64,000 nucleotides of DNA from a virus (IMGVR_UViG_3300032285_003957:160001-224000); one strand, 5' to 3'; counted from the stretch's first letter, positions 1 to 54,585 are shown. Translations and numbers: made by a program. The notes: a model not told the origin generated them from the sequence alone.

Positions 1-75
1 GCAAAGGTAAAAATAAGCTACAACGTAAATAACGGGACATTCACGTCGTCCGATTTTTTAATAATTAACATATAA
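1..75 (+). CDS. C-terminal end of an upstream gene, probably a gp25-like baseplate wedge protein (partial)
   Basis: Frame 1 reads AKVKISYNVNNGTFTSSDFLIINI-stop, and its TAA overlaps the next ATG (TAATG). Its position before a gp6/J-like gene suggests gp25. Confidence 0.4.
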   Translation, partial: AKVKISYNVNNGTFTSSDFLIINI

Positions 76-6444: not shown

Positions 6445-7137
6445 ATGAAGATATTTGATATTTTTAAAAAAAGAAAACCAAATCATTTAATAATTTACGT
6501 TGATTATAAAAGACGTGAATTATGGCTTTATAAGCTATTGTCTAAATTAACATATAGTGTTGGTCCTTTTACTGAAATGGATAAAGTTATTGATGGCGTT
6601 AAAAAATTTATTTACAAATATCCTGAACCATTAAAACAAATAAACATAACAAGTTTTGGTAGAGGTAGAAATTTAGTTGAAACGATTGAAGGTAGTGAAA
6701 AAATAAAAGAACTTGTTGACGCATTACGTCCAATCATTACACCTGAAACAAAATTAATGTTCACAACTTGCTTTAGTGGTATTTCATATAGAATGGCGGT
6801 AGAAATGTCAGAATATCTTGATGGTATTGAAATCTACGCTATGAAAAGAAGATACGGTATAAATGCGTTAATGACAAAATGTCAATGTAAAGAAAGTGGA
6901 TATAGCCAAAAAGTGATTGATTCAATACCATTAAGCAAAAGAGGGTTTTATGTTGATGAAAAAAATATGATTGACATTGTTAAGTGGCAACTTAATCAAG
7001 AAGTTAATTGGGTAACATCGGGAATGGCATATGAATATAACAAAAGAATGTTTGAAGATGGTATATGTGATACAAGTAAACAACCTAAAACAGTTTTGGA
7101 TGGAATAAAAAATTATTTATTTAATACTCAAGATTAA
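6445..7137 (+). CDS. Hypothetical protein, weakly DUF4347/caspase-fold-like
   Basis: The ATG at 6445 follows the upstream stop. INITSFGRG and LMFTTCFSG resemble the sHG and L.gC strands of DUF4347-type domains. Composition is Lys/Ile-rich, unlike the neighbours. Confidence 0.45.
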   Translation: MKIFDIFKKRKPNHLIIYVDYKRRELWLYKLLSKLTYSVGPFTEMDKVIDGVKKFIYKYPEPLKQINITSFGRGRNLVETIEGSEKIKELVDALRPIITPETKLMFTTCFSGISYRMAVEMSEYLDGIEIYAMKRRYGINALMTKCQCKESGYSQKVIDSIPLSKRGFYVDEKNMIDIVKWQLNQEVNWVTSGMAYEYNKRMFEDGICDTSKQPKTVLDGIKNYLFNTQD

Positions 7138-8987
7138 TGGACGAAAATAAACAAATATTACTTCCAAGTAAAAAATATCAAAAAGCTAACGACGAAGATG
7201 TTACTATTAGAATGGGGTTGGAAAACACCGAATCTTTAGTTAGAATTGGCGATAGAGAAATTGTATTAGACATTGCGGAACAATTTAATACCGAAAGACA
7301 AGCAAGCACCAAATATAAAATATACGGTAAAATGAGAATGGTGTTTCGTAATATGTATTCTGGTTCAACAACATATACAAATTTACAACGTAATTTATAT
7401 TTAAACGGTGACGGTAGTGAAGATATTGCACAATTTCCAAATAAATGGAAAGAAGGTTATATGTCTTATGAAGAGTTTGCATTGTTAAGAAACGATGTGT
7501 TAAGACAATCCTTTAATGTTCAAACAGGTGATACTTTATCATCATTCACCACATCAACAGATTTAATGGGTAATTCATATACGGGCCATACATTATTAAC
7601 ACCAATTACGGCCCCGTATCAAAATTGGAACATATATCTTTCTTATGTGTATGCACAAGATAGCTCATTTCCTATGGGTTATTCTTTTTCAGGAACAACC
7701 ACAGGATGTGGTGATGGAACAACGTTTTGTTTTACATCGGGTGATGGTATTCCATTTAGAATAACTGATGATGGAAAATATTATACATTAACAAGTCCTG
7801 TTGAACATGGATTTAGTGTTGGCCAATATATTTTATTATCAGGCGGAACATGTAATTTTAACGACTACGCTCATTCATTATTCCAAGTCAACACCGTTGG
7901 AAATCAAACATTCAATTCTGACAAATACAGCATTCAAATTAGTAAAGCTCAATTTAAATCTACAGCGTCAATAAACGGACAAATATTTGCTTTAGGTAAA
8001 AGAGTTACAGATATTAAAGATATAAGCGGTTCAACATCAAATTATTATGTTCACAAACATAAAACATTAACAGGTGTTAATGACTATATATTAGATTATG
8101 TTGGTTTTGAAAAACCAATATGGGAAGAAGAAAGAAAATTATTATTTGAAAATGTTGATGGCACATCAGATTATTTAGTTACTCAAAACAGAATGGAAGC
8201 TGTTTTATATGATTTTAAAGATACGTTAGATATATCTGGTTTAACAAATAACATGGGATTCACACCATTGGAAGTATATGTGACAACAATACTAAGAAAT
8301 GGTAATGGTTATTTTGATTATCCACCTAAAGTTGGATATAAATTTAATTTTCATGATTCATGGATAGACCAACACTTTAGTGGAACAACATCATACGAAA
8401 AAAGTATGACTGGTAACACATATACATTTAGTCCTAATTCTGCTGTAAGCGGATTTCCAACATTTACAGGTGGGACTGCATTACCTATTGGAACAATATT
8501 AACTGGTGCTTATGTTGAATATAACCCAAAGGAACACAAAGAAAGAATTATAAGTGAATCGTTTCATAAGTTTACAATTAAAAAAAGTGTTTTTAATCAT
8601 AGTCAAGACCAAGGCGTAATTGGATTTTTAGGTGCAACATCCGCAAATCCATTTGGGATGTATTACCAACCGCATCATCGTATTAAACTTAGACAATTAT
8701 CACCATATATTGAAATTGCAAATACTAATGACATTTACAATTTACCTGAAAATTGCACCTATGATGCTCACGATGGTGTGTGGAGATGGAGAGATTTATA
8801 TGACCACGGATATGTTGACCCCGATAATTACGGAACAAACTTTCCATTTGTAAATGGACAACATTATGTAATGAATGAAATTAATTTTTATTTAAGAAAT
8901 GAAAAATATTACACAAATAAAAAAGATGGTATTATTGATTTTAATGACATAATCAACAATAAGAATAAAAATGTAACAAATTGCTAA
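7137..8987 (+). CDS. Virion structural protein, unknown function
   Basis: 616-aa ORF coupled to its neighbours inside the baseplate operon, with many [ST]GxT motifs. Confidence 0.55.
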   Translation: MDENKQILLPSKKYQKANDEDVTIRMGLENTESLVRIGDREIVLDIAEQFNTERQASTKYKIYGKMRMVFRNMYSGSTTYTNLQRNLYLNGDGSEDIAQFPNKWKEGYMSYEEFALLRNDVLRQSFNVQTGDTLSSFTTSTDLMGNSYTGHTLLTPITAPYQNWNIYLSYVYAQDSSFPMGYSFSGTTTGCGDGTTFCFTSGDGIPFRITDDGKYYTLTSPVEHGFSVGQYILLSGGTCNFNDYAHSLFQVNTVGNQTFNSDKYSIQISKAQFKSTASINGQIFALGKRVTDIKDISGSTSNYYVHKHKTLTGVNDYILDYVGFEKPIWEEERKLLFENVDGTSDYLVTQNRMEAVLYDFKDTLDISGLTNNMGFTPLEVYVTTILRNGNGYFDYPPKVGYKFNFHDSWIDQHFSGTTSYEKSMTGNTYTFSPNSAVSGFPTFTGGTALPIGTILTGAYVEYNPKEHKERIISESFHKFTIKKSVFNHSQDQGVIGFLGATSANPFGMYYQPHHRIKLRQLSPYIEIANTNDIYNLPENCTYDAHDGVWRWRDLYDHGYVDPDNYGTNFPFVNGQHYVMNEINFYLRNEKYYTNKKDGIIDFNDIINNKNKNVTNC

Positions 8988-10364
8988 ATGAAAATTTTAA
9001 GAAATTATGTTGACCAAAATATAGTAATTAATACCGAAACCGATATTCAAACTAATGCGGGATGGGAAGAAAGTTTACAAGAATTTGAAACTGAAATCCT
9101 AAAAGAAATTGTCAACCCAATTGAAAATTATGAAACGGTAAGATATATTCATGCGCCATATACAACAACTAATGGTGGGTTAACATTCCAACAAGTTGAT
9201 TTATGGTTTGAATTTTATTTTTTAAGTGGCGGAACATATTCAACAGACTATACTTCGGCAGGTATAACACTTCACGAAAACACACAATTTCTAACTCAAT
9301 TTAGCAAATCATTTTTTAGAATTGAATTTTATAAAACACCTGGCGTAGTTGTTAATAATGTTTTAACTTGTCAACCACCAACAAGAACCAATAGAAAATT
9401 AGTTTTTGCTAAAAATTTACCAACAACGTTAAGTGAAAAATTTCATTTGAATTCAGTTGCAGACACAATACATATACCAATATTTCATGCATCTAACTAT
9501 AAAAACAGGGAGATGATTTACCAATTTTGGTTCCAAGATGAATCGGTTTTAGCTGAAACAAATTTAAGTGGAACAACAACAGGTAACACGTTTTTCATGA
9601 CTGCTAAATTTTACAATACAAAAGATGGTTCTATTGTGGATTTTACAAATGACGATTTTTGTCATACGTATGAAATAACTGAACAGTTTGACATGTATTA
9701 TCAAGTTGATTTTGATTACGTCAATCATAATTACATGATTTATAGATATAATGGAACTAAAGGTTCAAGAATTGGTGAAAGTGGTGACCCCATTTTATTT
9801 TATGAAAAGGGTGGTAAAATCAATTGTGCAACACCAACACCAACACCTACACCAACAAAAACACCAACAAATGGACCAGCGGTTACACCAACGTTAACAC
9901 CGACTCCAACAATTACACCTACAAGAACATCTTCAACACCATACAGTCAACCCGTTGATTTTACATTGGCTAATGATTGTGAAAATTTTGGCGTTAGGGT
10001 TGCAAACATGACTGGCGGCCATAATCAATTTCAAGGAACTGGTTTGTATTTTAGTGCGGCAGAAGCCACAGGTGCAACATTCTTTAATATCTCACAAATA
10101 AATAACACCACGGGTTATAATGCATCAAGGATATCAGGTAATTTATTTTATGCAAATGGAGTTACAATGTATGTTGCTGTTAGAGATTTACAAAATCCAT
10201 CAAACATAAGTGTTAAATCAATTGTTTTATCTAACTGCACACCACCATCTCCGTCACCACCAGTAAATCCAAGTGATTTATATACTAATACCATAACACT
10301 AAGTTACATTTCTTCTTTCCAAAGTAGTAAATGTGAAGCCTACACTAATTGCACGTGGGCATAA
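8988..10364 (+). CDS. Structural protein with a Pro/Thr linker and Cys-containing C-terminal domains
   Basis: Globular N-terminus followed by a TPTPTPTKTPT linker; starts right after the upstream stop. Confidence 0.55.
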   Translation: MKILRNYVDQNIVINTETDIQTNAGWEESLQEFETEILKEIVNPIENYETVRYIHAPYTTTNGGLTFQQVDLWFEFYFLSGGTYSTDYTSAGITLHENTQFLTQFSKSFFRIEFYKTPGVVVNNVLTCQPPTRTNRKLVFAKNLPTTLSEKFHLNSVADTIHIPIFHASNYKNREMIYQFWFQDESVLAETNLSGTTTGNTFFMTAKFYNTKDGSIVDFTNDDFCHTYEITEQFDMYYQVDFDYVNHNYMIYRYNGTKGSRIGESGDPILFYEKGGKINCATPTPTPTPTKTPTNGPAVTPTLTPTPTITPTRTSSTPYSQPVDFTLANDCENFGVRVANMTGGHNQFQGTGLYFSAAEATGATFFNISQINNTTGYNASRISGNLFYANGVTMYVAVRDLQNPSNISVKSIVLSNCTPPSPSPPVNPSDLYTNTITLSYISSFQSSKCEAYTNCTWA

Positions 10365-10388
10365 AATATTAAAAAAAATTTAAAAAAA

Positions 10389-10919
10389 ATGTCAAGACCC
10401 TGTGATAAAGGAACATATTTTTATGATAGTGTAGGATATTTGGCTGTAGGTCAAAAGTTTTATGCTACATCTAACGGTGGAGATGTAATGCAAGGCTATT
10501 ATTCAGGAAAATATAATGGAACTTTTTACATTTTTACTGTTGATGCTGGAGGATTTATAACGGCGATGGAAACAATTTCATCATTAGGATGTGCGGGAAC
10601 TACACCAGACCCAACACCATCACCAATACCACAAGGTAATTCATTATTATTAGCGTTTAGAACCACACAAGGGCTTTCTTGCACAATTGGGTCTGAAATC
10701 AGTCAAAGAACGGAAATGTGGTCAAACGCTAATGAATCAAGTTTACAAAATGTAGCAGATTCAATTACACCATCAGATAGTCTATTGGATTTAAATTATT
10801 ACATGTATGCTGACGTCAATATGACAACCACTAAAAATAACGGATATTATTCTGATGGAAACTATTGGTATCGTGTATACGGTAGTGCAGGTAAAATAAT
10901 AGATGCGGGTCGCTGTTAA
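10389..10919 (+). CDS. Paired-Cys tip-domain protein, in frame with the preceding ORF
   Basis: Two GYYS(D)G-type modules joined by a TTPDPTPSP linker. Same frame as 8988..10364, 24 nt after its TAA. Confidence 0.55.
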   Translation: MSRPCDKGTYFYDSVGYLAVGQKFYATSNGGDVMQGYYSGKYNGTFYIFTVDAGGFITAMETISSLGCAGTTPDPTPSPIPQGNSLLLAFRTTQGLSCTIGSEISQRTEMWSNANESSLQNVADSITPSDSLLDLNYYMYADVNMTTTKNNGYYSDGNYWYRVYGSAGKIIDAGRC

Positions 10920-10943
10920 TTCAGGATAAAATAAAAAATCGTT

Positions 10944-10951
10944 TATTTATA
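10944..10951 (+). promoter_or_regulatory. Putative late promoter TATTTATA
   Basis: Motif recurs before structural genes; here it ends 4 nt before the GTG. Confidence 0.6.
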
Positions 10952-10955
10952 GTAG

Positions 10956-13900
10956 GTGAAAAGGACAAAATATTCCATAAAAAGAGATAATATAGTATCA
11001 GGTTCGTTAATTGATTTAACAACCCACGCATGGCTTGATAGCAATGGTAATACTATTCCTTGGAGTGGAATGACAACAGGTAGCTTTCCTGTTAGTGGAA
11101 GTGTTATTTATAATACTAATACAGGCAGCCTATACGAAGGTTATTACCAATATGATGGCAATTTATGGCATCAAATAACTGGTTCACCATCAGTGGTCTC
11201 AAGCAAAATATACCCTGATTATCAAATCCCAATTTATTTGGATTCAAAAGCCGATGAAATGGGTCAGATGGTTGATTTTGATGGTAATGTTGGTCAAAAT
11301 ACAATCAGTGCAAATTTTGCTTATTCAGGTGTATGTTATGGTAGTGGTTATACAATTACCGTATGGAACACAACAAATTTTGGAAAACAAAAAAATAATT
11401 TAAAAGCTAATTTTACGGTTGCTTGGGATAAAGACAATTATCACGATGATTTACCTGCAAATTCTTCTAAATCTTTTACATATACACAAAACGGGACATA
11501 TAACTTAAAAATATTCATGCAGGCGCCATGGACTACGGAAGTTATTACTAAAGAAGTTGTGGTTGTATGTTTCGTTACACCAACACCAACAACTACACCA
11601 ACAAACACGGTGACACCTACAATTACACCTACGAGTAGTATTACACCAACTATTACGGTTACACCAACAATTACACCTACTAATACCTTAACCCCAACAA
11701 TTACACCAACAGTAACTCATACATCCACAGTAACACCAACGGTTACTCAAACACATACTCCAACAGTTACAGTAACTAAAACACCACTTTATTGTGAATT
11801 AGGCGGTAATGCAACTTATGTAATGCCGACACCTACACCAACCGTAACAATAACAGTTACACCAACAACCACACCTGCGATAACTCATACACCTACTGTA
11901 ACACCAACGATTACACATACGCCATTGTATTGTGAATTAGGTGGATCAGCAGAATACATTATTCCAACACCAACACCTACTCCGACAAATACGGTAACAC
12001 CTACTTTAACGCCAACAAATACTGTTACACCAACGTTAACACCTACAGTAACTAAAACACCACTTTATTGTGAAATGGGTGGTAGTGCAGAGTATATCGC
12101 ACCTACACCTACTCCAACTGTAACTTCTACAACAACACCAACAGTTACACCAACAATTACTATCACTCAAACTGTAACACCTACAAATACACCAACAAAC
12201 ACGGTAACACCTACGGTGACTAAAACGCCGCTTTATTGTGAGCTTGGCGGTAGTGCAGAATATATAGCCCCTACACCTACACCAACGGCTACACCAACTG
12301 AAACGCCAACATTAACACCTACCGCAACTATAACACAAACAGTAACACCTACTAGTAGCATTGCACCAACAGTTACACCAACAAACACTGGTACACCAAC
12401 GTTAACACCTACAGTAACTAAAACACCACTTTATTGTGAATTAGGCGGTAATGCTACGTATGTTGCACCTACACCTACCCCAACTGTAACTTCTACAACA
12501 ACACCGACATTAACACCAACAGTTACACCAACAAATACCATTACATTAACGGTTACACCTACAAATACAATTACGTCTACTGTAACACCAACAAATACAA
12601 TTACGTCTACTGTAACACCTACAGTAACTAAGACACCACTTTATTGTGAGTTGGGAGGTAATGCCACATATGTCGCACCAACACCTACACCAACAAATAC
12701 AGTTACAACAACACCAACTGTGACCCCAACTATTACTAATACGTCAACTGTAACTGTGACTCCAACTAATACTCCAACTGTAACCTTAACTCCTACTAAC
12801 ACACCTACAGTTACACCAACAAACACTGTTACACCAACGTTAACACCTACGGTGACTAAAACGCCATTGTATTGTGAACTTGGAGGTAACGCACAATATA
12901 TTGCACCTACACCAACCCCTACACCAACAAATACGGTTACACCGACTGTTACAGTAACACCAACATCAGCAGTTACTTCAACACCAACACCTACACCAAC
13001 CATTACACAAACTATAACACCAACAAGTTCAATTGCTGCAACTTCTACAGTTACACCGACAAAATCTGTTGCCGCAACACCAACGGTTACGCCAACAACA
13101 ACAGTAACACCATCATATACACCAACCAAAACAGTTACACCAACTGTTACACCGACTGTGACACCTACAAATACCGTAACACCGACGGTTACGCCAACGT
13201 TACCTGCATTAATTCTTTCTGTTTCAAGTTCAACAGTTCAATCATGTTATAATGTTAGTGATGCATCATTTACATTAAGTGCAAGTGGTGGTAATGGTGC
13301 TTCATATGAATATTCAAAAGATAATGTAAACTGGCAAACAGGCACAACATTTAGTAGTTTAGCGGGAACAACTTATACAGGTTATGTTAGAAATAGTAAT
13401 AGAACAGGAACGGTTACATCTGTTTCAGTTGGTAGTTTGGCAAGAAGTGCACCAAGTGCAACAATTACAACATCAAACTACAATGGTTATAGTATTGCAT
13501 GTAATGGTGGAACAGATTCGATTGTAGTTTCAGCATTAACAGGTGGCCAAGGTGCACCGTATCAAGTTAAATTAAATTCTGGTGGAACATATCAAACAAC
13601 AACAACATCAAGAACATATTCAAGTTTAGGTGCGGGTTCATATACAATATATGTTAAAGATTCTGCGGGTTGTGAAAATACAATTTCAGTTACATTAACT
13701 CAACCGTCTGCAGTTACATCAACAATATCAGCATCATCTTTACCAACATGTTATAATGGTGCTAATGGTTCAGTAACAGCTACAGCGGGAGGCGGAGTTG
13801 GCGGCTATACATATTCTTTAAATGGCGGAGCTTATCAATCAAGTGCTACATTTAGTAGTTTAGCTAATGGGACATATAGTATCACAGTTAAAGATGCGAA

Positions 13901-14753
13901 TGGTTGCACAGCAACATCGTCTTCAACTACATTGAATAGAACAGCACCAAATGCAACATTTACGGTATCCAACTTTAATGGTTATAGTATAAGTTGTAAC
14001 GGTGGTGCGGATGGTTCAATTGCTGTAAGTGGAGGCTCAGGTGGTTCTGGCGCAGGTTACAGTGGTTCAACAGATAATTTAACATATTATTCATTACCAA
14101 AAACATTTGGTTCATTAAATGCAGCAAATAGTCCATATACGATATTCATTAAAGATAGTAGTGGTTGCGTTCAATCATATGATTTCACAATTACACAACC
14201 ACCTGCACAAACAGCAACAGCTTCAGTTATAACTACCGACGATGGAACTGGTATTGGACGTATTGATGTGGCAGTTAATGGAGGCGCAGGATTGAAAACA
14301 ATTAGATTATATATTGACTCATCAACACCATATACAGATAATAGTAAAACAACATTGGTTGCAACAGCGACAAACGTAGCAAACAATACAACATATTCGT
14401 TTACCGGATTATTATGTTCAGTTGGCCGTCATTGGGCTGAGATTACGGATGCAAATGGTTGTGTTAAAAATAGTAACTCAGTTCAACTTTGTGGATACTA
14501 CTATATCGGTAAGTATACTTCAAGCAATACAATACAATGTACACCATCAGGTAGCTTAGTTAATACATATTTGTCTTATACCGATTACACAAATTATGTG
14601 GCAGGAGGTAATGTATTAGCACCAGGTATGATAGTCTATAAAGATGATATTGGAACAGTATTCACAACAACGAGAATTTATGACCCTGCAACAACAAATA
14701 TATGGGGTTTAAGTTCAGGCGTAATTAGTGCTAATCCATACCAAAGCTGTTAA
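10956..14753 (+). CDS. Mucin-like stalk protein with SprB-type repeats (virion fibre/decoration)
   Basis: GTG start just after TATTTATA, then a ~540-aa Pro/Thr/Val region, about five SprB-like repeats ([13 protein letters not shown]...YTI.VKD..GC) and a terminal paired-Cys domain. Confidence 0.7.
11575..13200 (+). repeat. Pro/Thr-rich coding repeat with 7 copies of T(K/H)TPLYCE(L/M)GG(N/S)A.Y
   Basis: Read directly from the translation; the DNA is ACA/CCA-rich. Confidence 0.95.
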
Positions 14754-14777
14754 ACCATGGTATGCAAATAATATAAT

Positions 14778-14805
14778 AAAACCCCTTTATTTAAAGGGGT
14801 TTTTT
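14778..14805 (+). terminator. Intrinsic terminator
   Basis: AAAACCCCTTT-attt-AAAGGGGTTTT hairpin with a T run after the 10956 gene. Confidence 0.85.
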
Positions 14806-14836
14806 GTTTAAATTATCTCTGAAGATATTTAATAAT

Positions 14837-15400
14837 ATGCCAGACTTGGGAACATTAACATTTACAATACCATCTTACTTATTGGAAGATGGGACAAGTG
14901 CACCCGCAACCACGGTTAATCAAAATTATTTAAACAATTTAGATTACGTTGCGAATACAGGTGTAACCGCAGGATATACGGGAATGACATATTATGCCAT
15001 AGGAGGAAGTCGTATTCAAGAAAAGAAACTTTACGGTGGTGGGTATAGTGGTGTAACAACTGGAATGACAGAAGACAATGTTATTTACAGCGCATATAGT
15101 TTCACCTACAGTGGTCAAACTATGGGTAATCAAACATTATATTATGCCGATTTTCCTGATGGTCATACAATGATTACGGGGCATACAACAGGTTTTACAG
15201 AACAAGCGGTTTTTAATTCTGTCCTAACTCGAAATGAACATTTCCTTGGATTTGTTGAACAACCAAGAATATATTCGGACATTTTTGTTGAAAGAGGAAA
15301 AATGGGAGTTTTAGAGAATAACCACAGATTGGGAGAAATTGGAACATTAGGTGACCTTGAGTATTATGGAAACAAATACTTTAACGTCAAAAAACTATAA
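14837..15400 (+). CDS. Small structural protein, unknown function
   Basis: ATG at 14837 is preferred because the listed TTG start lies in the terminator. Contains seven [ST]GxT motifs. Confidence 0.55.
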   Translation: MPDLGTLTFTIPSYLLEDGTSAPATTVNQNYLNNLDYVANTGVTAGYTGMTYYAIGGSRIQEKKLYGGGYSGVTTGMTEDNVIYSAYSFTYSGQTMGNQTLYYADFPDGHTMITGHTTGFTEQAVFNSVLTRNEHFLGFVEQPRIYSDIFVERGKMGVLENNHRLGEIGTLGDLEYYGNKYFNVKKL

Positions 15401-15425
15401 AATTTATATTTATTAATAAAAAGAT

Positions 15426-16346
15426 ATGGCAGTAGGAAGTTATGGAATGGTAAGGCCGGCAGATGTATCACCTGCAGATGTAGATATCTATTATCATTTT
15501 GTTGCTGATAGAACTACCACATCTCAGGTTACATTACAAAAGTTGTCACCATCAGCAAATTATCTAACTCCGGTTTATCAAAACTCAGGAACAACAGATA
15601 ACCAAAATGCGGTGAATAAAGAATTGTTAGGTGGTTTATATAATTTAAAGCTAACATCTGATAAATTCTCACAATTAGGTATATACACACTTCACATAAG
15701 ACCAAAACAAATTAGAGCGTCAATCATGGATTGTGGAGTCTTAAGCTCACTTCCTTCAGTTAGAGGTTTAGTTATTGATTTAAATAATATAGCGGCTGAA
15801 GATAGAGCAAAATTTACCCCACAAGGGATGGTCGGATATCGTGTAGAATATCTAAACGATGACTACACAAAGACACCTAATTTTTATAGAATTGTTACAT
15901 CAAGTTTCTATTGTCAACCAATAGTAGCCAATTTATCAAATACAACGGATAAAGCAATTAGATATAGATATGTTGACCAATCAAGCAACTTAGTTTTTTT
16001 AACGTTAACACCAACATCCTCACCATCAAGTAGACCGAACTTTGTTCCGTTTATTGGTAAACCTGGTCAAAATATTATATTATCAAATACATATTTCAAT
16101 CCAACAACAATTGAAGTTGAAATGGTTGAACATGATGCATCTACATTGGCTAATGCTCTTTACGGTAATCAAACTAAAGCAGTTGCTCCAGGTATTTACA
16201 CAATTTACGATAAGGATAATCAAATCTATAAACAATACAACTTATACGAAATCAAAGACGAATTCAACGATACTCTATATGAAGTTAGAGAAGAAAGGAA
16301 TAATATCGATGAGACGCTTGGTTTCAACAACATAACTAACGTTTAA
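15426..16346 (+). CDS. Conserved-looking structural protein, unknown function
   Basis: 306-aa ORF with upstream TATTTAT, coupled to the next gene. Confidence 0.5.
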   Translation: MAVGSYGMVRPADVSPADVDIYYHFVADRTTTSQVTLQKLSPSANYLTPVYQNSGTTDNQNAVNKELLGGLYNLKLTSDKFSQLGIYTLHIRPKQIRASIMDCGVLSSLPSVRGLVIDLNNIAAEDRAKFTPQGMVGYRVEYLNDDYTKTPNFYRIVTSSFYCQPIVANLSNTTDKAIRYRYVDQSSNLVFLTLTPTSSPSSRPNFVPFIGKPGQNIILSNTYFNPTTIEVEMVEHDASTLANALYGNQTKAVAPGIYTIYDKDNQIYKQYNLYEIKDEFNDTLYEVREERNNIDETLGFNNITNV

Positions 16347-19300
16347 TGGCAACATCAAGAACGGTAAGATTAAAAATACCAAATCAGGCTGCGAGCGGAG
16401 CGGATACATTTAGTGACAATCTTGTTGGTAATCAAATTACCGATGGAACTGGTCAATTGACCAATAGCAACTTTGCGTTAGATAAAGTAATAGTTGAAAA
16501 GGATAGTAAAGAATTTAAAACAGCAAAATTTTCTGAATTCTTAACTTTAGATAGTTTAAAAAAAGAAACATCCGCACCAACAACACAAGACACAACTGAT
16601 GGTTCTGTTAGTCAAACCAAAGATGAAAAAATTAAATTCAGAAGTTCAAAAAATGATGCAAGTAGGTCTTTGTTTGGTTCTTTAAAAGACAGAACATTTA
16701 TTTCGTTAAAAAAAATAATTACAAAGTTTCCTGCCGCCCTTTATGCTGACCCCGATTCTGTAGTCGGTATTTCTGAATTTACAGCAAAAAATATTACATA
16801 TAGTAAAGTATCTAATATAACTTCATTTGATATTGAGTATGGTAAAATATACAATCCATTAAGTATTAATTTAGTTGCACCAAATAGTGCAGATTCATTA
16901 ACTACGGATAATGATATTAAAAACATATATTCAGCTTATAAAAAATATGTTTTAGTTTATAATGGTAATCAATATGATGTTGTGGGATATGTTCAACCAA
17001 CATCATTAAATTATAACACAACAACATTTAGAGTTAAAGGTTTACCATTTGGTGATAATACTGGTGTTAGTGACTCTTTCTTAATAAGACCAAATGATGG
17101 AATAACTGAAGAGTTTTTCTTAAATTTAGATGATTTAGAATCTTTATTATTGAATAGAGATACAAGTCCAATTTATCAAGTAAATTTCAAAGTTCCAAGA
17201 GATTCGGCAGACTTAACGGGAACCGAAATGACAACATTAAGTTATAACTGGCCACTATCAAAAGACGGTTATAACATACAAATCGTAGGTTTAGATTACG
17301 AGGAATATGTTGACGCTTTAAGTAGCACAGCTCAAGAGATTGATGACTATAAATCAAATTTAGTTGTTAGATTTTTAACGGCGCCCCAATTATTTGAATT
17401 TGATACCGATGACCAAAGAGCACAAGCAATTTTTCAATTATATGGTCAATCATTCGATAGAGTAAAAAAATATATAGATAATATTGCTTACATGAGAAAT
17501 GTAAGTTATGACGGTATCAATAATGTTCCTGATGTATTATTAAAGAATTTATCAGAAACATTAGGGTTCAATACTGTTAATTTATTTGACGAAAAAACAT
17601 TAGACGAATCATTATATAGAAAACACGATACACAATATACTGCACTTGATTCAGGTAAAAGCTTAGTTGAGGCTGAAAACGAATTTTATAAAAGATTAAT
17701 AATTAATCTTGTTCATTTATATAAATCAAAAGGGACTAAAAACGCATTAACATTTTTTTTAAAGTTTTTAGGTGCACCCGAACCATTAATTAAAATTGAC
17801 GAGTATGTTTATGATGTTGATTCATCATCATTACCTACGTCAACACAAGATGATATATATAACACAATTAATGGTAATTTTGTTGAAACTATCATTACAG
17901 GTTTTTCACAAACAACTTATGCATACTCAACGGGAACAACAATACACACAACAGCATTAACTCGAGATGAATATCCAATTGACACATATAATGTCCCAAA
18001 AAGTGTTTCAAATGTTAGTGATGACATTTTCTTTCAAAAAGGAGCTGGTTGGTATGATTTAACAATAGACCATAGGTCACCAAATATTACTGATACAGCA
18101 AATTCAGTATTAACTGGTAGAATTAAAAGTGTTGTAACTAAATCAGCACCATTTACATATGGAGAAGATTATTTTCAAAATTTTAGAAAATTCCCTGGTT
18201 TAGATTATGGGTTTCAACTTACAGCAAGAGTAGTTGATAACAAAGGTGATGTTGATAATGTATTATCTGATTTTACACTTAATAGAAAAAATATTGGAAT
18301 ATATTTGTCATCAGCACGAGCTGTGGATTATGATATTTGGAGACAATCAAGAAACTTAGAACTTACTTTTGGTTCGTTGGGACCACAAACAGGATACACA
18401 TTTGCGGAGTATTTAGATTCAGCATTAAATGAAGTTATTAAAAATTCACATGTTGCTAAATTTAAACCTCACTATCCTGATTTAGTTACTGTTTACAATT
18501 CATATATTAGTAGCACACAAATTACACCATATGATTTTATTGCAATAAATGATTTCATTTATAAAATGAGTCCAATGTGGACTCAACTAATTGAACAATT
18601 TGTTCCTGCTACAACATTGTGGACTGGCGGTAATTTAATTGAAAACAATAGATTCCAAAGGTCAAAATATACATATAAAAAACCTTGTCAAGTATTTGAA
18701 TTAATTGACGACACGTATCCTGAACCAACAGGAACAACCACTTCATATTTTGTAGATGAGATAAATTATCTATGGAATCAATTAGGATTTGTGCATGACG
18801 GATCTAATGATTATCCTCAATTAAGAGATTGGCTCGAAGATGGCTACATGCAATTCTTTCCTATTTTTAAAATAGATGGTGTAACATATTCAGGTTCAAC
18901 AGACCATGTATTGATTCCACCACCACCAATCCATGCGGGATATGTTGATGCGGAAAACTATGAAGCTAAAGCAGCTTACACAGGTTATACTGGTTGCACG
19001 TATGCACTATTATCAGGCGCAACAACAAATATTAGTCCCGTAAACGGTCAATATGAAAATGCGAGATTATATAAAGATAAAAGTTCAGGAGATGACGAAC
19101 AAAATATAGATTTTGTAGGATTAAAAGCAATGTGGAAACAAGCAATTGTTAACACAGTAAGATACATTAACACATATAGTGGTTATACTGGAACAAATAA
19201 TCAATTAACATTTACACCTAATGCAGTTGGTAAAGATACTGCTTATGGAAATTCTATCAATAATCCAAGTATTACAGGAACAACAATATTACCAATATTA

Positions 19301-20932
19301 TCATATGAATTTTTTGTTAATAAAGATGGTGTTGAAAAAGTAAGATTTAAATCATACAAATATGGTCCACATAATTGCACAGTAATGAATTCATTTGATT
19401 TCTTATTTGCATATGGTTATGCGTCACCAGACCCAACACCGACTGTTACACCAACAATGACGGTAACACCAACACACACACCAACTGTTACACCAACACC
19501 GACTGTTACACCAACTATGACCGTCACACCAACAATGACGGTAACACCAACACAATCAATACCATGTGTAATTAATGCTAGCGCTGAATATAGAAGTAGC
19601 GCATGTCCGGTAACACCAACACCAACACCTACACCAACATCTGCAGCAATTGCTGTTACGCCTTCAGTTACCGTAACACCATCAACACCTTTACCAGGTT
19701 GTGGTAGCACAGTTTCAGGTAGTTGGGCATCAGGAACTAATGTTGTTCAAACAAGATATCTTGATTTAACGGCGGCAACAAATGGTGGTTTAATTACATT
19801 ACATTATACAGCAAATGAAAGACCTGACAGATTTAACATATATGATAGTTCAGATAATTTAGTTGTTACTAGTGGATGGGTTGGTTCGGATTATAACTAT
19901 ACAGGTCCGTGGACAGGCGGTGGTGGCATTGCTGATACTGATGGCGATGGATATATGTCATTTACATATGATAGTTCTAAAACATATCGTTTAACTGTTG
20001 ATGTCGGACCATGGAATCCTGCTAATCAACTTTCAGATAGTTGGTCGGTTACAATTACATGTGCAGGCGTCATAGCACCAACACCAACAGTTACAACATC
20101 ACCATCTATGACACCAACACCAACACCAAGACAAAGATACCAAGTGCAATTATGTGCAGGTAGTGGTGGTAATGGAACACAAATTTATAACATAGAAATT
20201 GCATTATCGGTTACAGTTGGTAAAACATATACATTATTAGGTTATCCTGGTGCACCTGCATTAATGAATGGTGCAAATTGTTGGAATATTAATAATGCTA
20301 ATTTTGATAACACATATGATGGAACTGCAACTTATAATGAAGAATATCCAGATTGTGCACATTGTTCAGCGGCCCCATTAACCGCATATACGGGTAGCAC
20401 ATTATTAAATGCGTGTAATGGAGTTAATGGTCAAACAACATTATGGTATAGAGGTAATTTAGGCGTTGGAACTGTATTATATAGTGATAGAAGTTTATTA
20501 GCGGATTACTTAGTGCCAACACCGGGTTATTATTACGATGTTGATAATGATAGAGTTTTACACGTTGGTGTGTTTAGTCAATATCCAAATATTCCATCAC
20601 CAGAAGATGGGTATGTTACCGACATTCAATATTGTCCTGCACCAACACCAACACCAACACCTTCACCAATTGGAGTAGCGTTAGGTGGATATATGGCATT
20701 ATCTTATGGTAGCACAGGACCTGGTGCATGTTCAGGAAGTAGTGGAACAATTAATGTTTATTATGCTTCTACTGATCCACATGGAGGTGATTTATGGTCA
20801 GGAACAACATATTATAATTTTAATGGTTTCCCATTTGATGGTAGTTCATATGGTTATTTTTCCGATGGAGTTAGTTATTATGGAACAATAAGTGAAAATG
20901 GTTATTACCAACAAGAAGGAACTTGTGAATAA
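16346..20932 (+). CDS. Baseplate wedge/tail protein I-like protein with a PT stalk and C-terminal adhesin-like domains
   Basis: LLKNLSETLGF...YKRLIINLVHLYKSKGTKNALTFFLKFLG resembles the P2 gpI / gp7-type motif. PT linkers at about 19430-19690, then beta-sandwich-like and paired-Cys domains. Confidence 0.6.
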   Translation: MATSRTVRLKIPNQAASGADTFSDNLVGNQITDGTGQLTNSNFALDKVIVEKDSKEFKTAKFSEFLTLDSLKKETSAPTTQDTTDGSVSQTKDEKIKFRSSKNDASRSLFGSLKDRTFISLKKIITKFPAALYADPDSVVGISEFTAKNITYSKVSNITSFDIEYGKIYNPLSINLVAPNSADSLTTDNDIKNIYSAYKKYVLVYNGNQYDVVGYVQPTSLNYNTTTFRVKGLPFGDNTGVSDSFLIRPNDGITEEFFLNLDDLESLLLNRDTSPIYQVNFKVPRDSADLTGTEMTTLSYNWPLSKDGYNIQIVGLDYEEYVDALSSTAQEIDDYKSNLVVRFLTAPQLFEFDTDDQRAQAIFQLYGQSFDRVKKYIDNIAYMRNVSYDGINNVPDVLLKNLSETLGFNTVNLFDEKTLDESLYRKHDTQYTALDSGKSLVEAENEFYKRLIINLVHLYKSKGTKNALTFFLKFLGAPEPLIKIDEYVYDVDSSSLPTSTQDDIYNTINGNFVETIITGFSQTTYAYSTGTTIHTTALTRDEYPIDTYNVPKSVSNVSDDIFFQKGAGWYDLTIDHRSPNITDTANSVLTGRIKSVVTKSAPFTYGEDYFQNFRKFPGLDYGFQLTARVVDNKGDVDNVLSDFTLNRKNIGIYLSSARAVDYDIWRQSRNLELTFGSLGPQTGYTFAEYLDSALNEVIKNSHVAKFKPHYPDLVTVYNSYISSTQITPYDFIAINDFIYKMSPMWTQLIEQFVPATTLWTGGNLIENNRFQRSKYTYKKPCQVFELIDDTYPEPTGTTTSYFVDEINYLWNQLGFVHDGSNDYPQLRDWLEDGYMQFFPIFKIDGVTYSGSTDHVLIPPPPIHAGYVDAENYEAKAAYTGYTGCTYALLSGATTNISPVNGQYENARLYKDKSSGDDEQNIDFVGLKAMWKQAIVNTVRYINTYSGYTGTNNQLTFTPNAVGKDTAYGNSINNPSITGTTILPILSYEFFVNKDGVEKVRFKSYKYGPHNCTVMNSFDFLFAYGYASPDPTPTVTPTMTVTPTHTPTVTPTPTVTPTMTVTPTMTVTPTQSIPCVINASAEYRSSACPVTPTPTPTPTSAAIAVTPSVTVTPSTPLPGCGSTVSGSWASGTNVVQTRYLDLTAATNGGLITLHYTANERPDRFNIYDSSDNLVVTSGWVGSDYNYTGPWTGGGGIADTDGDGYMSFTYDSSKTYRLTVDVGPWNPANQLSDSWSVTITCAGVIAPTPTVTTSPSMTPTPTPRQRYQVQLCAGSGGNGTQIYNIEIALSVTVGKTYTLLGYPGAPALMNGANCWNINNANFDNTYDGTATYNEEYPDCAHCSAAPLTAYTGSTLLNACNGVNGQTTLWYRGNLGVGTVLYSDRSLLADYLVPTPGYYYDVDNDRVLHVGVFSQYPNIPSPEDGYVTDIQYCPAPTPTPTPSPIGVALGGYMALSYGSTGPGACSGSSGTINVYYASTDPHGGDLWSGTTYYNFNGFPFDGSSYGYFSDGVSYYGTISENGYYQQEGTCE

Positions 20933-20947
20933 AAATAAAAAAGAATT

Positions 20948-22522
20948 ATGGCAATATCGGGAATCATAACAATAGCGGATACAACAACAGCAAGTATAAC
21001 ATCTTTTGATTTATATTCATGCACGTCATCAAGTAATAGTTCTTGTAGTGGAACAGCTTTTGCTACGAACGTATCGAGAGCAAGCTTGTTGGATGGTTAT
21101 TGTAGTGATTTAATTCCAGATGGAACAACATATATAAAAGTTAATGCAAATAGCGGTGCTTGTCAAAACATTAACCCTGCTATAGTTGAATTATCGGGTG
21201 TTCCAATAATACCAACGTCAACACCTACACCAACACCGGCAGCACCAACACCAACACCAACACCAAGTAAAGCACCGGGTAGCGGATTGACAGCACATTA
21301 TTTATCAACGGGTTCAACATATGCTGAAGCGTGTGCAAATTTCAGCATACACACGGACCCATATTATGTTTACAATGACGCCACATTACAAGCAGGTAAC
21401 GTATTATGTCAAAACAATAACTGTTCAACCAAAGCACTTAATGGATATTATTCTGATGGGACAAATTATTGGCTTGTGGGAGATGGCGTTGGAGGAATTA
21501 GTGCAGGACCAACATCATGCTCAATTGTTGATATAACAACAATTGATTTAGGTGGTGTTAATTGTAGATTAGTTGGTTCTTGTAATGACAACGGCACATG
21601 TTCGGTGAGATATAATATTAACTTTGCAAATGGTAGACCATCTGCAACTCAAGTATTTGTTCAACCTATAGGTAGTAATACAGCATCTGTTGCTGTTTAT
21701 AACGATTTAGGTAATAACACAGATGTTTATTTAGATTATAGCGAAAGTAATGGGTCACAATCAATTAATTTTAGATTAATATTAAAATCATTCCCAAGTG
21801 GAAATGAAATATGTAGGTCAGGAGATTTAACTTTAAATCACAATCATGGTGGTGCACCATGGAATATGATTAGTGCATGTAGTAGTGGTACTAGTGGAAC
21901 TTCAGGTTCGTCAGGTGGTGGTGGAACATCATATTACTCATTCACTGTAGGAACTGGTTATACGGCGCATGATGCTTGTGCAGATGCGGTAAATAATACA
22001 TTAACATTATATACAACCGATAGTGCAAATAGAAATTTGGTTGACCAAACGTCATATTATAGTAATAATAGTGGAGCATTATTTACAAGCTCAGGATTCA
22101 TACGCTTCTCTGACGGAACAAATTACGGTATAATAGATCAATATGGTGTTTATTATCAAACAGATGCATGCACCAATTTACCGGTATTAGGAACAATTAC
22201 CGGATTCACATATGATACTCAAGGAACATATGATTACGGTAGCGACACAACATCATATGTGACAACCGTAACTGGACATACTAATGGTGTAGGTCCAATT
22301 ATAGCGGGTGTTTCTAATTTAGCATTAAGTGTTAAAGTATATTCCGCAAATAGAGATGAATATGCTTACGTGATGTTAGGTGGAACTGTCGGTAGTGGAA
22401 CGGAGGTAGTCGGTGAATATTCTTGGAATGGTGGATATGACCCGTATATACTTACATTATGTTTCGACCAATGGTATGCGCAAGCACAAGGTAATGTTGA
22501 CCCAACATTAAACTGTCATTAA
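20948..22522 (+). CDS. Modular virion surface protein (N-terminal anchor, PT linker, paired-Cys domains)
   Basis: Shares an N-terminal module with the next gene; GYYSDG modules and a short SGTSGTSGSSG stretch. Confidence 0.55.
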   Translation: MAISGIITIADTTTASITSFDLYSCTSSSNSSCSGTAFATNVSRASLLDGYCSDLIPDGTTYIKVNANSGACQNINPAIVELSGVPIIPTSTPTPTPAAPTPTPTPSKAPGSGLTAHYLSTGSTYAEACANFSIHTDPYYVYNDATLQAGNVLCQNNNCSTKALNGYYSDGTNYWLVGDGVGGISAGPTSCSIVDITTIDLGGVNCRLVGSCNDNGTCSVRYNINFANGRPSATQVFVQPIGSNTASVAVYNDLGNNTDVYLDYSESNGSQSINFRLILKSFPSGNEICRSGDLTLNHNHGGAPWNMISACSSGTSGTSGSSGGGGTSYYSFTVGTGYTAHDACADAVNNTLTLYTTDSANRNLVDQTSYYSNNSGALFTSSGFIRFSDGTNYGIIDQYGVYYQTDACTNLPVLGTITGFTYDTQGTYDYGSDTTSYVTTVTGHTNGVGPIIAGVSNLALSVKVYSANRDEYAYVMLGGTVGSGTEVVGEYSWNGGYDPYILTLCFDQWYAQAQGNVDPTLNCH

Positions 22523-22535
22523 AACTAAAAACTAA

Positions 22536-22543
22536 TATTTATA
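22536..22543 (+). promoter_or_regulatory. Putative late promoter TATTTATA
   Basis: Intergenic, before the 22574 gene. Confidence 0.6.
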
Positions 22544-22573
22544 TAATAACAAAAAAATAGTAAATTAAACTAT

Positions 22574-23443
22574 ATGTCATTCTTAACTAAAATAACCCTA
22601 ACAACTGCAGGATCATCAACTGGACCTTTTGATATATACCAAAATTCGGATAACTATGCTACGGCGGTAGCTACAGGTGTAACTAAATCCGATTTAGTTG
22701 CGGGGTATACAATTTCAGTAAATGATACTACAACAAGTGTATTGGTCCAATCTTTAGGTCTATGTAACACAAGTAATATTACATTACCAATAAGTGGATT
22801 CCCAACATCAACTCCAACACCTACACCAACATTAACACCAACAGCATCCCCTGTGGGCGCTGGTGTTAGTCATATATCACTTTCAAGTGGTCATACGGTA
22901 GCAAGCGCTTGTACTGGTGCAACTCAAACTTATTACTATTCAGGTTCATTTATTAATGGTGCACAATTATGGGTAGACGCTCAATTTACAGATAATGCAC
23001 CTGGTACAAATGGTAGTCCAGTTTATTATTATTCATACGATTTCAATTCAATATATTATATTAATGATAGTGAAGGTCACAAATATGCTTCATCCGAAGT
23101 TTGTCCTACAGCGACACCGGTTGTAAACGCTAATTCATATTGGGTGAGCACAGTAGATGGGCCAACAGCAGCTACTTGTGGTGGTGATGACGTATTTGGT
23201 GTTCCTCACACGCAATTAACAGGTTTTACAGTTTATGGTAGTGCAATTTCAGGTATTTGTGATGCAACAATGATTGTTGATATGCCTGCAATTGTTAAAT
23301 CTGAAGTTCCGTTTAATGGCACATTCTGGGTTGGTAAAAAAGTTGGTGGTAATTTCTACTATAGAAAATATGTCAGAGATTCGTCAGGAACATCAGCAAC
23401 ACCAGATGGAGCATGCGTAGTTTATAATACTCCTTGTAATTAA
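22574..23443 (+). CDS. Modular virion surface protein (N-terminal anchor, PT linker, two paired-Cys domains)
   Basis: ITLTTAGSSTGPFDIY N-terminus, PTPTPT linker, upstream TATTTATA. Confidence 0.55.
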   Translation: MSFLTKITLTTAGSSTGPFDIYQNSDNYATAVATGVTKSDLVAGYTISVNDTTTSVLVQSLGLCNTSNITLPISGFPTSTPTPTPTLTPTASPVGAGVSHISLSSGHTVASACTGATQTYYYSGSFINGAQLWVDAQFTDNAPGTNGSPVYYYSYDFNSIYYINDSEGHKYASSEVCPTATPVVNANSYWVSTVDGPTAATCGGDDVFGVPHTQLTGFTVYGSAISGICDATMIVDMPAIVKSEVPFNGTFWVGKKVGGNFYYRKYVRDSSGTSATPDGACVVYNTPCN

Positions 23444-23460
23444 AAAATATAAATTAAAAA

Positions 23461-25491
23461 ATGAGCTTTTTAGATAAGAATAACCAAGAATATATAACAG
23501 CAAGATTAACGCAAGAAGGTCGTAATGCAATCGCTAAAGGCGATTTTAAAATCGATTACTTTGCTGTTGGTGATTCTGAATATAACTATAATTTTACAAC
23601 AGGTTCACAAATGGTGTTAGCACCAATGGATAAAGATACTCAAGTAAAATATCCGTTATTATATCAAAGCGGCTCAGCAACAATATACGGAGTTCCAATT
23701 ACCGGTTCAACAACTGAAACGATTAAAAATGTGATGGGTGAAGCAGGATTTATTTCTGGTAACACATTTTCAGATGGTGCATTAGTTACATCAGGTAGTT
23801 TCACAAATATAAGCGGCGCAACTACATTAACATTAACAGTTCCAAGTGGTAAAACATATTTCGATTCAGGATATATTACATTATTCACAAATGGAGTATC
23901 AAATAAAACATTGACATCTTTTTCCAATAGTTACACCTATAAACTATTAAGTGTTTCAGGATTAACGTCAACAAGCGAAATGTTGACATTAGATAGAGCA
24001 ACACCAAATTTGTCAGGATTAACTGGTAATTTTTATATTGTTGGTAATAATTGTGAAAATGAATTCACAGTGGCAAGTGACATCAATAACACTTGTTTAC
24101 CTCCATTACCTGACCCATCTGCACAACACAATCCTTGGAAGTTGAATACTGTGTGGTCACAAAATCCAATCGGGTTTAGAACAACAGACGACAAAACAAC
24201 CGGCTTTGTCAGTGCAAAATATCATTCTGCAAAAGAATTATTAGGTTATTATTCAAATAGCGGTCAAACATTTACAGATATAACTGGTGGCACAATATCG
24301 GGAATTACATATGTTAATTCATTTGGTGAGGAAATAATGTTAAACCCTAATCAAGCAAATACAATAGCAATTGTTCATTATTCTGAAATTGGAGATTTTA
24401 TTAACGACCCTGATAGATATTACAAATATGATGATTACATAGCACATACAGGACAAACAGATAATACAAATTTTAAAATACACATTCCTTTCATAAATTA
24501 TCATAGAAACACTGGAACCACAATTGGTGCATATTTTTATATGGGAACGAGTAACAAATACATTTCATCCACACCAAATTCTTTACATAAAATAAAATAT
24601 AGAGATTTGATTGATGAACAAAATATTAAAGTTGGTAAAGTATTTGTTAATAATAAATTAATTGTTTTTGATGACCAAGAAATTGCAGCAGTTTTAGACC
24701 ATAAATCAAATAGAAATTTCACATTACCTGCACCAAAATTAGAATTAACACACTCAACAGACGGAACATATCTATTAGGTGGCACAACAGGTGAAACGCT
24801 TTATATTTCATATCTATTCTCAGGTGCAACAGGTTTAAATTCATATCCATGTAATGCAATAACAAACGTAAAATTAGAATACGAAACAGTAAAAGACGAA
24901 TGTTCTGTTACTGCGATATTACCCCCATCAGATGTTGTGGTTAAATTTACAGGTAGCACACAATTTGATTTTTTACAAACGGATAACGCTAATTTAAAGA
25001 GCGGAGTAACTATGACTAAGTTCTACATCCTTGCACAAAAAACGCAAAACAACACGTTACCAACATCAAATGGATGGAGATTAATTGATACTAATACATC
25101 ATTAACAAATGGTTATATTGCTGAGTCATCAGTTTATAATTCAATAACTAAAATTACAAAATATCAATACGATAATGCATCGATATTTTCATTGTCAGAC
25201 CATACCGGTCAATCATATTCAAATGCGACCACACAATTTGGTGACGAACAACCATTTGCAGGTTCAGTTAAATTAACAAGAGCATCCGACATTGAAGAAA
25301 TGAAATTCTTGGTAAACTTACCATCAGGTAAATTTGCAACATCACAAAATCCAACACACACAACGGGTAATCCTATGATTACTGAAATTGCGTTATTGGA
25401 TGAAAGTAAGAATGTTTTGGTTATGGGAAAAACACCTTCACCTATTTCAAGAAATTCTTCACAAGTATTTGCTGTTAAATTAGACTTCTAA
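23461..25491 (+). CDS. Tail-collar/tail-fibre attachment-like baseplate protein with a large central insertion
   Basis: N-terminal ARLTQEGRNAIAKG...YFAVGDSE and C-terminal ITEIALLDESKNVLVMGK...KLDF resemble the two halves of the P2 gpH N-terminal (tail-collar) domain. Confidence 0.55.
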   Translation: MSFLDKNNQEYITARLTQEGRNAIAKGDFKIDYFAVGDSEYNYNFTTGSQMVLAPMDKDTQVKYPLLYQSGSATIYGVPITGSTTETIKNVMGEAGFISGNTFSDGALVTSGSFTNISGATTLTLTVPSGKTYFDSGYITLFTNGVSNKTLTSFSNSYTYKLLSVSGLTSTSEMLTLDRATPNLSGLTGNFYIVGNNCENEFTVASDINNTCLPPLPDPSAQHNPWKLNTVWSQNPIGFRTTDDKTTGFVSAKYHSAKELLGYYSNSGQTFTDITGGTISGITYVNSFGEEIMLNPNQANTIAIVHYSEIGDFINDPDRYYKYDDYIAHTGQTDNTNFKIHIPFINYHRNTGTTIGAYFYMGTSNKYISSTPNSLHKIKYRDLIDEQNIKVGKVFVNNKLIVFDDQEIAAVLDHKSNRNFTLPAPKLELTHSTDGTYLLGGTTGETLYISYLFSGATGLNSYPCNAITNVKLEYETVKDECSVTAILPPSDVVVKFTGSTQFDFLQTDNANLKSGVTMTKFYILAQKTQNNTLPTSNGWRLIDTNTSLTNGYIAESSVYNSITKITKYQYDNASIFSLSDHTGQSYSNATTQFGDEQPFAGSVKLTRASDIEEMKFLVNLPSGKFATSQNPTHTTGNPMITEIALLDESKNVLVMGKTPSPISRNSSQVFAVKLDF

Positions 25492-54520: not shown

Positions 54521-54585
54521 TAACCTATATAGGTTAATTAACCGTGATACATATCACAAACATTCCGAGGGACCCATATATATGG
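54521..54585 (+). promoter_or_regulatory. Palindrome-rich leader of the 54582 fibre gene
   Basis: TAACCTATATAGGTTA, GGTTAATTAACC, GTGATA-ca-TATCAC and CCATATATATGG (which contains the ATG). Confidence 0.55.

Follow-up and report, generated by a model that had tools for sequence, protein, structure and literature searches.

A [Ser/Thr]-Gly-x-Thr tetrapeptide enriched in the distal tail and baseplate proteins of one phage lineage, and its possible role as a virion-modification site

Why should one tetrapeptide, [Ser/Thr]-Gly-x-Thr ([ST]GxT), recur through a series of unrelated tail and baseplate proteins of a phage? The question is raised by a 64,000-nucleotide stretch of viral DNA (the window), which represents positions 160001–224000 of the IMG/VR record IMGVR_UViG_3300032285_003957, a linear sequence of 234,116 bp with 33.5% GC that is about 70% complete. 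A first-pass annotation of the window had counted the tetrapeptide by hand and proposed that it could be a selected sequon, used either for post-translational modification of the virion or for docking a decoration protein. The present study confirms the excess and traces it to selection on the protein. In the tail and baseplate proteins, both of this phage and of metagenomic relatives numbering in the hundreds, it amounts to about five times the chance expectation, and it is a trait of one phage lineage. As to its role, a site read in trans, with an O-glycosylation sequon as the likeliest form of modification site, is tentatively preferred over the alternatives weighed below.

The eight unrelated proteins encoded at 1962–25491 contain 63 copies of [ST]GxT, where whole-protein shuffles predict 10.2 (counts for each protein are given in Table 1; proteins are named here by the first position of their genes). 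The manual counts were reproduced exactly, including the same seven tetrapeptides in the 14804 protein and the further copies in the 1962, 8988 and 16346 proteins, and Thr indeed makes up only a moderate share of the motif-rich sequences (9–14% of residues measured). The enrichment also persisted in shuffles made within blocks of 10, 20 or 40 residues, which preserve local composition: in nine proteins (the eight and the genome 53674 protein) 75 copies were observed and 14–17.5 expected, with z values of 15–17, which rules out composition or local Thr-richness as the source. Counting the first residue as position 0, Thr follows [ST]G at +3 in 49% of cases, compared with 14–18% at +2 and at +4 to +7. 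When all a-b-x-c patterns were scanned without bias, SGxT and TGxT came out among the top ranks, most of the higher ones arising from the Pro/Thr-rich linkers of the 10956 protein.

The tail module and the rest of the genome differ in this respect. The motif, remarked to be essentially absent from the replication enzymes, occurs three times in the 27 open reading frames (ORFs) listed at 25531–47519, which are mostly for replication and repair; 2.2 copies are expected there. Genome-wide, using a simple longest-ORF caller, 85 of the 239 [ST]G dipeptides in the tail module continue as xT (23.2 expected), and 31 of 354 do so in the rest of the genome (23.3 expected). The description of the copies as dispersed rather than tandem holds for most of them, but some form doublets at a spacing of 3–4 residues, and short spacings of 3, 4 and 7 recur. 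No long-range periodicity of the beta-solenoid type was found among the motif sites.

The signal originates in the protein sequence. Codons at the three fixed positions match the background use of the genes, with Ser specified by both TCN and AGY, and the degenerate DNA pattern occurs almost only in frame 0 and is nearly absent from the reverse strand; together, the frame confinement and the codon use rule out a DNA-level motif. Hidden paralogy or a shared domain was rejected in turn, as BLASTP gave no signal among at least nine families and hhalign none among three family profiles, so the motif-rich proteins are not paralogs, just as the first-pass annotation had stated. An artefact of composition, low complexity, hidden paralogy or DNA-level signal is very improbable, being essentially excluded by the local-block shuffles (z of about 15), the specificity for +3, the near-confinement to the coding frame with background codons, and the lack of relatedness; Ser, Thr and Gly do make up a larger share of the motif-rich proteins than of the enzymes, and an 11-residue tandem repeat gives nine copies from one event in the genome 53674 protein, but the truly low-complexity Ser/Gly fibres are poor in the motif, with three copies against 28.7 expected.

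Each position of the motif has its own preferences. Position 0 is divided equally between Ser and Thr, whereas at +3 Thr is enriched 4.5-fold, Ser stands at 1.06 times background, Val and Ile show no enrichment and Gly is at 0.54 times background. NGxT and DGxT are not enriched, and the coupling therefore needs a hydroxyl at both ends. Hydrophobic residues are preferred at −1 and +4; position x never holds Pro and seldom a charged residue. Across 2462 distinct motif contexts Asp occurs at −1 at only 0.1 times background, and Asp and Glu are depleted at −1, x and +4. The dipeptides NG and DG occur at normal frequency, which rules out the motif as a substitute for deamidation-prone Asn-Gly or Asp-Gly turns. 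A wider sub-motif, [ST]GxT..QL..G, gave only 11 loose matches and did not define a class.

Within the lineage, the motif is kept while individual sites come and go. Homologs of the 7137 protein at 50–55% identity retain the enrichment with most sites at aligned positions, Ser and Thr exchanging at position 0 and x varying freely. The mean number of sites is 8.6 against 1.6 expected in the 14804 family (more than 395 homologs), and 14.9 against 2.9 in the 23461 family (more than 1271 homologs), representatives of the latter being enriched down to about 170 bits. Enrichment was seen at every one of the 80 IMG/VR loci that the 23461 profile retrieved; a few of them had low ratios because Ser/Gly-repeat proteins at those loci inflate the count of [ST]G dipeptides. 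In an alignment of 120 members of the 23461 family the motif appears in 108 columns, with about 15 sites per protein; two columns hold it in over 75% of the sequences, and another 18 do so in 25–75%. New sites arise within insertions too. Across homologs, losses that change only the Gly outnumber those that change only position 0 (115 versus 52), Gly giving way to Ser, Thr, Val, Tyr, Ala or Glu, and position 0 being replaced most often by Asn or Asp. Site number per protein was not under-dispersed (variance 12.6, compared with 8.2 for independent sites), giving no sign of selection on that number, and a preference of sites for variable or indel-rich regions was not significant.

Six control genomes or modules gave observed/expected ratios of 0.7–1.4. 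They comprise the homologous baseplate modules of Flavobacterium phage immuto (22 copies, 15.5 expected), Microcystis phage Mel-JY01 (5 and 7.6) and LR756508 (3 and 2.8), and the genomes of phage XacN1 (90 and 85.9) and of two phages with complete sequences, G018 (61 and 66.1) and G020 (59 and 51.3). The last of these is a distant relative of the window phage, with capsid, portal, sheath and wedge proteins in common at 28–40% identity. In a syntenic relative, L122, the tail gene, resolvase, primase and exonuclease follow one another as they do in the window. It encodes a full-length homolog (26% identity) in which none of the four [ST]G dipeptides belongs to the motif; where the window protein has its sites, the Gly has given way to Tyr, Glu, Ala, Ser or Asp. 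Since this homolog is full-length without a single copy, the fold does not need the motif. The tail module of L122 also carries a UDP-galactopyranose mutase-like gene (PF03275; L122:2435–3520), with a glycosyltransferase family 25 (GT25) gene nearby.

The relatives come from aquatic metagenomes and one homolog is labelled as from a Bacteroidota bin; the host is probably a member of the Bacteroidota. Moraphages, described in 2025, are freshwater jumbo phages predicted to infect Flavobacteriia and have four core glycosyltransferase families (PMC12619734). The window phage may belong to this group, a circumstantial assignment that draws on the aquatic relatives, the Bacteroidota-labelled bin and the several conserved glycosyltransferases.

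Where the motif lies in the folded protein was assessed on AlphaFold models. That of the 198-residue 14804 protein was too poor for use (predicted local distance difference test, pLDDT, 57), and that of the 23461 protein was good (pLDDT 80.5; predicted template modelling score 0.81). In the latter, residues 95–200 form a beta-barrel resembling domains of the JBD30 baseplate, the Chi tail tip and T5 Dit (Z 6–8), and the chain ends resemble an HFTV1 tail protein (Z 8.2), which together fit a baseplate or tail-tip role. No solved-structure relatives were found for the three family profiles, and Foldseek searches of the PDB gave only weak whole-chain matches. In the 23461 model Gly is outside strands at 14 of the 15 sites and a strand precedes the motif (positions −1 and 0) at only two, placing the motif in loops just upstream of strands rather than in hairpin turns. 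Thr(+3) falls within −1 to +3 residues of a strand start at eight sites, against a background of 24% (p = 0.015). A beta-hairpin turn motif was rejected, given flanking strands on both sides at only 2 of the 15 sites and a Gly that is not the most conserved position, although S99-G-N-T102 does form a clean two-residue hairpin. The expectation that the sites occupy surface loops is thus borne out by the model as far as loops are concerned, and the competing idea of buried beta-turns finds hairpins at just one or two of the 15 sites. Outside the distal tail the motif is weaker and is found in variable parts: all three sites of the major head protein are at residues 196–250, beyond the stretch matching head-protein profiles, and all five in the sheath are outside the conserved C-terminal core.

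The genes of the window concerned here are on the plus strand, starting with a wedge protein and continuing with large orphan proteins as far as 25491, downstream of which are genes for a RuvC-like resolvase, primase, exonuclease and SbcD. None of the eight motif-rich proteins at 1962–25491 has a significant Pfam or PHROG match, known tail-fibre repeat families included.

Table 1. Features of the window and of the remainder of the genome record. Expected values are for [ST]GxT copies; "genome" marks coordinates of the whole record.
Coordinates	Strand	Length (aa)	Feature	[ST]GxT copies	[ST]G dipeptides	Expected copies
75–1907	+	610	Baseplate wedge (gp6/J-like) protein, PHROG 219 and PHROG 6, E 1e-20; start of distal tail module	0	7	
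1962–6443	+	1493	Orphan large tail/baseplate protein	7	22	1.7
7137–8987	+	616	Orphan tail/baseplate protein	10	15	0.8
8988–10364	+	458	Orphan protein; includes doublet SGTT-TGNT	4	9	0.7
10956–14753	+	1265	Virion structural protein, 25% Thr, Pro/Thr-rich linkers; no enrichment	5		8
14804–15400	+	198	Orphan protein	7	7	
16346–20932	+	1528	Orphan large tail protein	11	30	2.5
20948–22522	+	524	Orphan protein	5	18	1.6
22574–23443	+	289	Orphan protein	4	9	1.0
23461–25491	+	676	Tail/baseplate-type protein	15	25	1.4
48451–52611	+	1386	Large Gly/Ser-rich fibre-like protein; mild enrichment (shuffles); member of fibre-like family	9		3.0
54582–57278			Member of fibre-like family			
57351–63389			Member of fibre-like family			
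genome 2095–2814			GT2 glycosyltransferase, E 2e-11			
genome 42461–49579			Glycan-assembly cluster, about 7 kb			
genome 53674–55764		696	Orphan protein	12	17	
genome 57437–58165			GT2_5 glycosyltransferase, E 2e-31			
genome 90194–91975			Large terminase			
genome 92030–93868			Portal protein			
genome 97431–99191			Major head protein			
genome 112581–113852			GT-B glycosyltransferase, PHROG 7162, E 4e-41			
genome 117688–123290			Member of fibre-like family			
genome 131827–134685			Tail sheath protein			
genome 227266–231594			Member of fibre-like family			

Three further observations concern individual proteins. The Pro/Thr linkers of the 10956 protein contain 120 copies of PTxT, where 11 are expected, and represent a more conventional, mucin-like acceptor tract. 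The very long fibre-like proteins reach 2012 residues, with 31% Ser and 22% Gly, and have an N-terminal module in common at 50–72% identity. The genome 53674 protein is encoded about 4 kb downstream of the glycosyltransferase cluster, and 9 of its 12 motif copies come from the tandem repeat mentioned above (two motif units plus ATT), a single event.

In the reading tentatively preferred here, [ST]-G-x-T, preferably with hydrophobic flanks, is a short linear motif that a freshwater jumbo-phage lineage maintains by positive selection in its distal tail and baseplate loops, and a lineage-specific factor would read it in trans. That reader would most likely be a phage-encoded protein-modifying enzyme, perhaps a glycosyltransferase, and the best guess is that it O-glycosylates the Ser/Thr or Thr hydroxyl. 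A reader of this kind would account for a motif that is confined to virion proteins and to one lineage, changes its sites readily and requires two hydroxyls. The more complete scenario, in which a widespread lineage of uncultured jumbo phages, probably growing on Bacteroidota, marks exposed tail and baseplate loops with the motif and uses its own enzyme to build a glycan coat on the adsorption apparatus, is more doubtful still. Literature searches for SGxT/TGxT and for phage glycoproteins returned no description of the motif.

Candidate enzymes are plentiful, and a search for glycosyltransferases, suggested with the original proposal, found many of them in this genome, as a virion glycosylation system with phage-encoded enzymes would have. 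The glycan-assembly cluster specifies a GT60-family protein (PF11397, E 6e-70), GT10-like and GT25-like proteins, an FkbM-type methyltransferase and a fusion of TylF, HtrL and a (TAGT-like) glycosyltransferase, two sugar-type methyltransferases being counted in all. Elsewhere there are the GT2_5 gene, a GT2 gene adjoining one for a metallophosphoesterase, and a GT-B gene whose product is GT1/GT4-like by Atlas structure. PF11397 occurs in all three of the lineage genomes with a completeness of at least 90% and is missing from immuto, Mel-JY01 and LR756508. GT60 homologs also occur, at 45–49% identity, in XacN1, Xoo-sp13 and Stenotrophomonas phages CM1 and RAS14. The GT-B and GT2_5 proteins are conserved at 46–73% identity in the three near-complete, motif-positive genomes and are absent from the complete, motif-negative G018 and G020; by this pattern they are candidate readers, although shared ancestry could explain it equally well. 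Their matches in the lineage genomes G002, G003 and G006 span one to three stop codons at the edges, probably where the alignment runs past the ORF ends, and no GT-B match was found in the 198-kb relative G001, the record of which is only 60% complete. The GT10-like gene was dropped as a lineage core gene because it is not conserved.

Sugars could also be directed at DNA. Neither a TET/JBP gene nor a thymidylate-synthase-like hydroxymethylase turned up in this record (about 70% complete), so DNA is not an obvious target here. The thymidylate-synthase-like ORFs of G003 and G006 are 430–442 residues long, longer than is usual for ThyA, and may encode base hydroxymethylases; the complete G002 lacks them. 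Xanthomonas phage XacN1 has been reported to have virion glycoproteins (PMC5852040), which provides some precedent for virion glycosylation among jumbo phages.

Several observations weigh against a glycosyltransferase-read sequon. GT60 homologs are found without motif enrichment in XacN1 (47% identity), G018 (67%) and G020 (60%), so no enzyme is linked to the motif; GT60 as its reader, or a GT60-dependent sequon, is not supported, given this lack of co-variation (observed/expected ratios of 0.9–1.15 in those three phages). The presence and absence of GT-B and GT2_5 is confounded by shared ancestry. The motif resembles none of the O-glycosylation sequons compared, and a GT60-type enzyme would find more conventional acceptors in the Pro/Thr-rich linkers that this genome also encodes. 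Thymidylate-synthase-like genes in two of the three near-complete lineage genomes make DNA glycosylation possible for some of the enzymes. Lastly, a structural role fits the hydrophobic −1 and +4 positions, the lack of Pro at x, the Asn/Asp at position 0 and the pre-strand placement too. The original proposal of a selected modification or docking sequon gains protein-level selection, virion restriction, lineage specificity, site turnover, loop placement and an abundance of glycosyltransferases, but no enzyme or partner is linked to it.

A purely structural explanation comes next in order and is possible, if doubtful. Here hydrophobic-[ST]-G-x-T-hydrophobic would form a favoured loop-to-strand junction, used again and again by this lineage in its beta-rich tail proteins without any reader in trans, in which position 0 caps an ST-turn, Gly gives flexibility and the beta-branched Thr opens the strand. 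The clustering of Thr(+3) near strand starts at 8 of the 15 modelled sites, the hydrophobic preference at −1 and +4, the avoidance of Pro and charged residues at x, and the conservation of many sites at aligned positions are all consistent with it, as is the single clean hairpin at S99–T102. Asn and Asp, the usual replacements at position 0, are classical equivalents of Ser and Thr in capping turns. Yet the beta-rich tail and baseplate proteins of other phages show no such preference in the six controls, and there is no apparent reason for a universal rule of folding to act in a single lineage. Gly, which ought to matter most to a turn, is not the most conserved position and gives way to six other residues; strands on both sides are seen at only two sites; and the full-length L122 homolog folds with no copies at all.

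Docking is improbable. The tetrapeptide would then be a repeated, low-affinity contact for another virion component, such as the shared N-terminal anchor of the Ser/Gly-rich fibres, a decoration protein or an assembly chaperone. Such contacts would leave the same signature as a sequon (lineage-specific, virion-restricted and subject to turnover), and at least five long fibre-like proteins with their common N-terminal module are at hand. A four-residue contact with a free x is, however, very small, the sites are scattered across many proteins and not placed at a symmetric interface, and the candidate partner is only hypothetical. A site read in trans thus ranks ahead of a structural loop-to-strand element, and both ahead of docking, with the remaining probability left to explanations other than these three.

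The signal is strong in any case and recurs in hundreds of environmental phage sequences. Were [ST]GxT an acceptor site, bacteriophages would have their first described system of sequon-directed virion modification, with a list of sites and candidate enzymes already available and a way of predicting decorated surfaces straight from metagenomic data. A glycan coat on the adsorption apparatus could influence the host range and stability of the phage and how host defences recognise it. Were the motif structural, it would be an unusually clear case of a single lineage converging on one loop solution in many unrelated proteins, and of interest to protein designers.

Among known systems, virion O-glycosylation in mycobacteriophages offers a close functional comparison: the glycans there are carried on the C-terminal ends of capsid and tail-tube subunits and follow no defined sequon (Freeman et al. 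2023, cited in PMC12619734). Common to both cases are phage-encoded glycosyltransferases for which decoration of cytoplasmically made virion proteins is proposed or shown, whereas the present one involves a dispersed tetrapeptide on distal tail proteins and is known from sequence. Closer to the likely host, the general O-glycosylation sequon of the Bacteroidota is D-[ST]-[ALIVMT], which requires Asp at −1 and acts in the periplasm. It is similarly short, with a hydroxyl acceptor and a nearby hydrophobic residue, but virions assemble in the cytoplasm, and the depletion of Asp at −1 to 0.1 times background rules this sequon out. The glycosaminoglycan site of animals (Ser-Gly-x-Gly with acidic flanks), an analogy drawn in the first-pass annotation, also fails, as +3 is Thr rather than Gly (Gly 0.54 times background) and Asp and Glu are depleted around the motif.

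The known acceptors of the polypeptide GlcNAc-transferases of family GT60 (PF11397) are hydroxyproline or mucin-like Thr/Pro tracts. The phage has a strong homolog (E 6e-70) within a multi-enzyme glycan cluster, but these acceptors differ from [ST]GxT, and the presence of GT60 does not co-vary with the motif. Two-residue beta-hairpin turns can have Gly at the first loop position, and the motif is like them in that its Gly lies in coil between hydroxyl residues, with hydrophobic residues at −1 and +4; it departs from them in that only one or two of the 15 modelled sites are hairpins and the beta-rich proteins of other phages lack a general enrichment. The glycan shields of eukaryotic viruses are rich in sequons used by host enzymes, and BclA of Bacillus carries O-glycosylated, collagen-like G-x-T repeats modified by chromosomally encoded enzymes. 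Those motifs and enzymes are different, and [ST]GxT stands isolated in globular proteins rather than in a collagen helix. What the three have in common is a short acceptor (or, for [ST]GxT, a putative acceptor) motif that is rapidly gained and lost on an exposed virion or spore surface, and in BclA the glycosylated unit is itself G-x-T.

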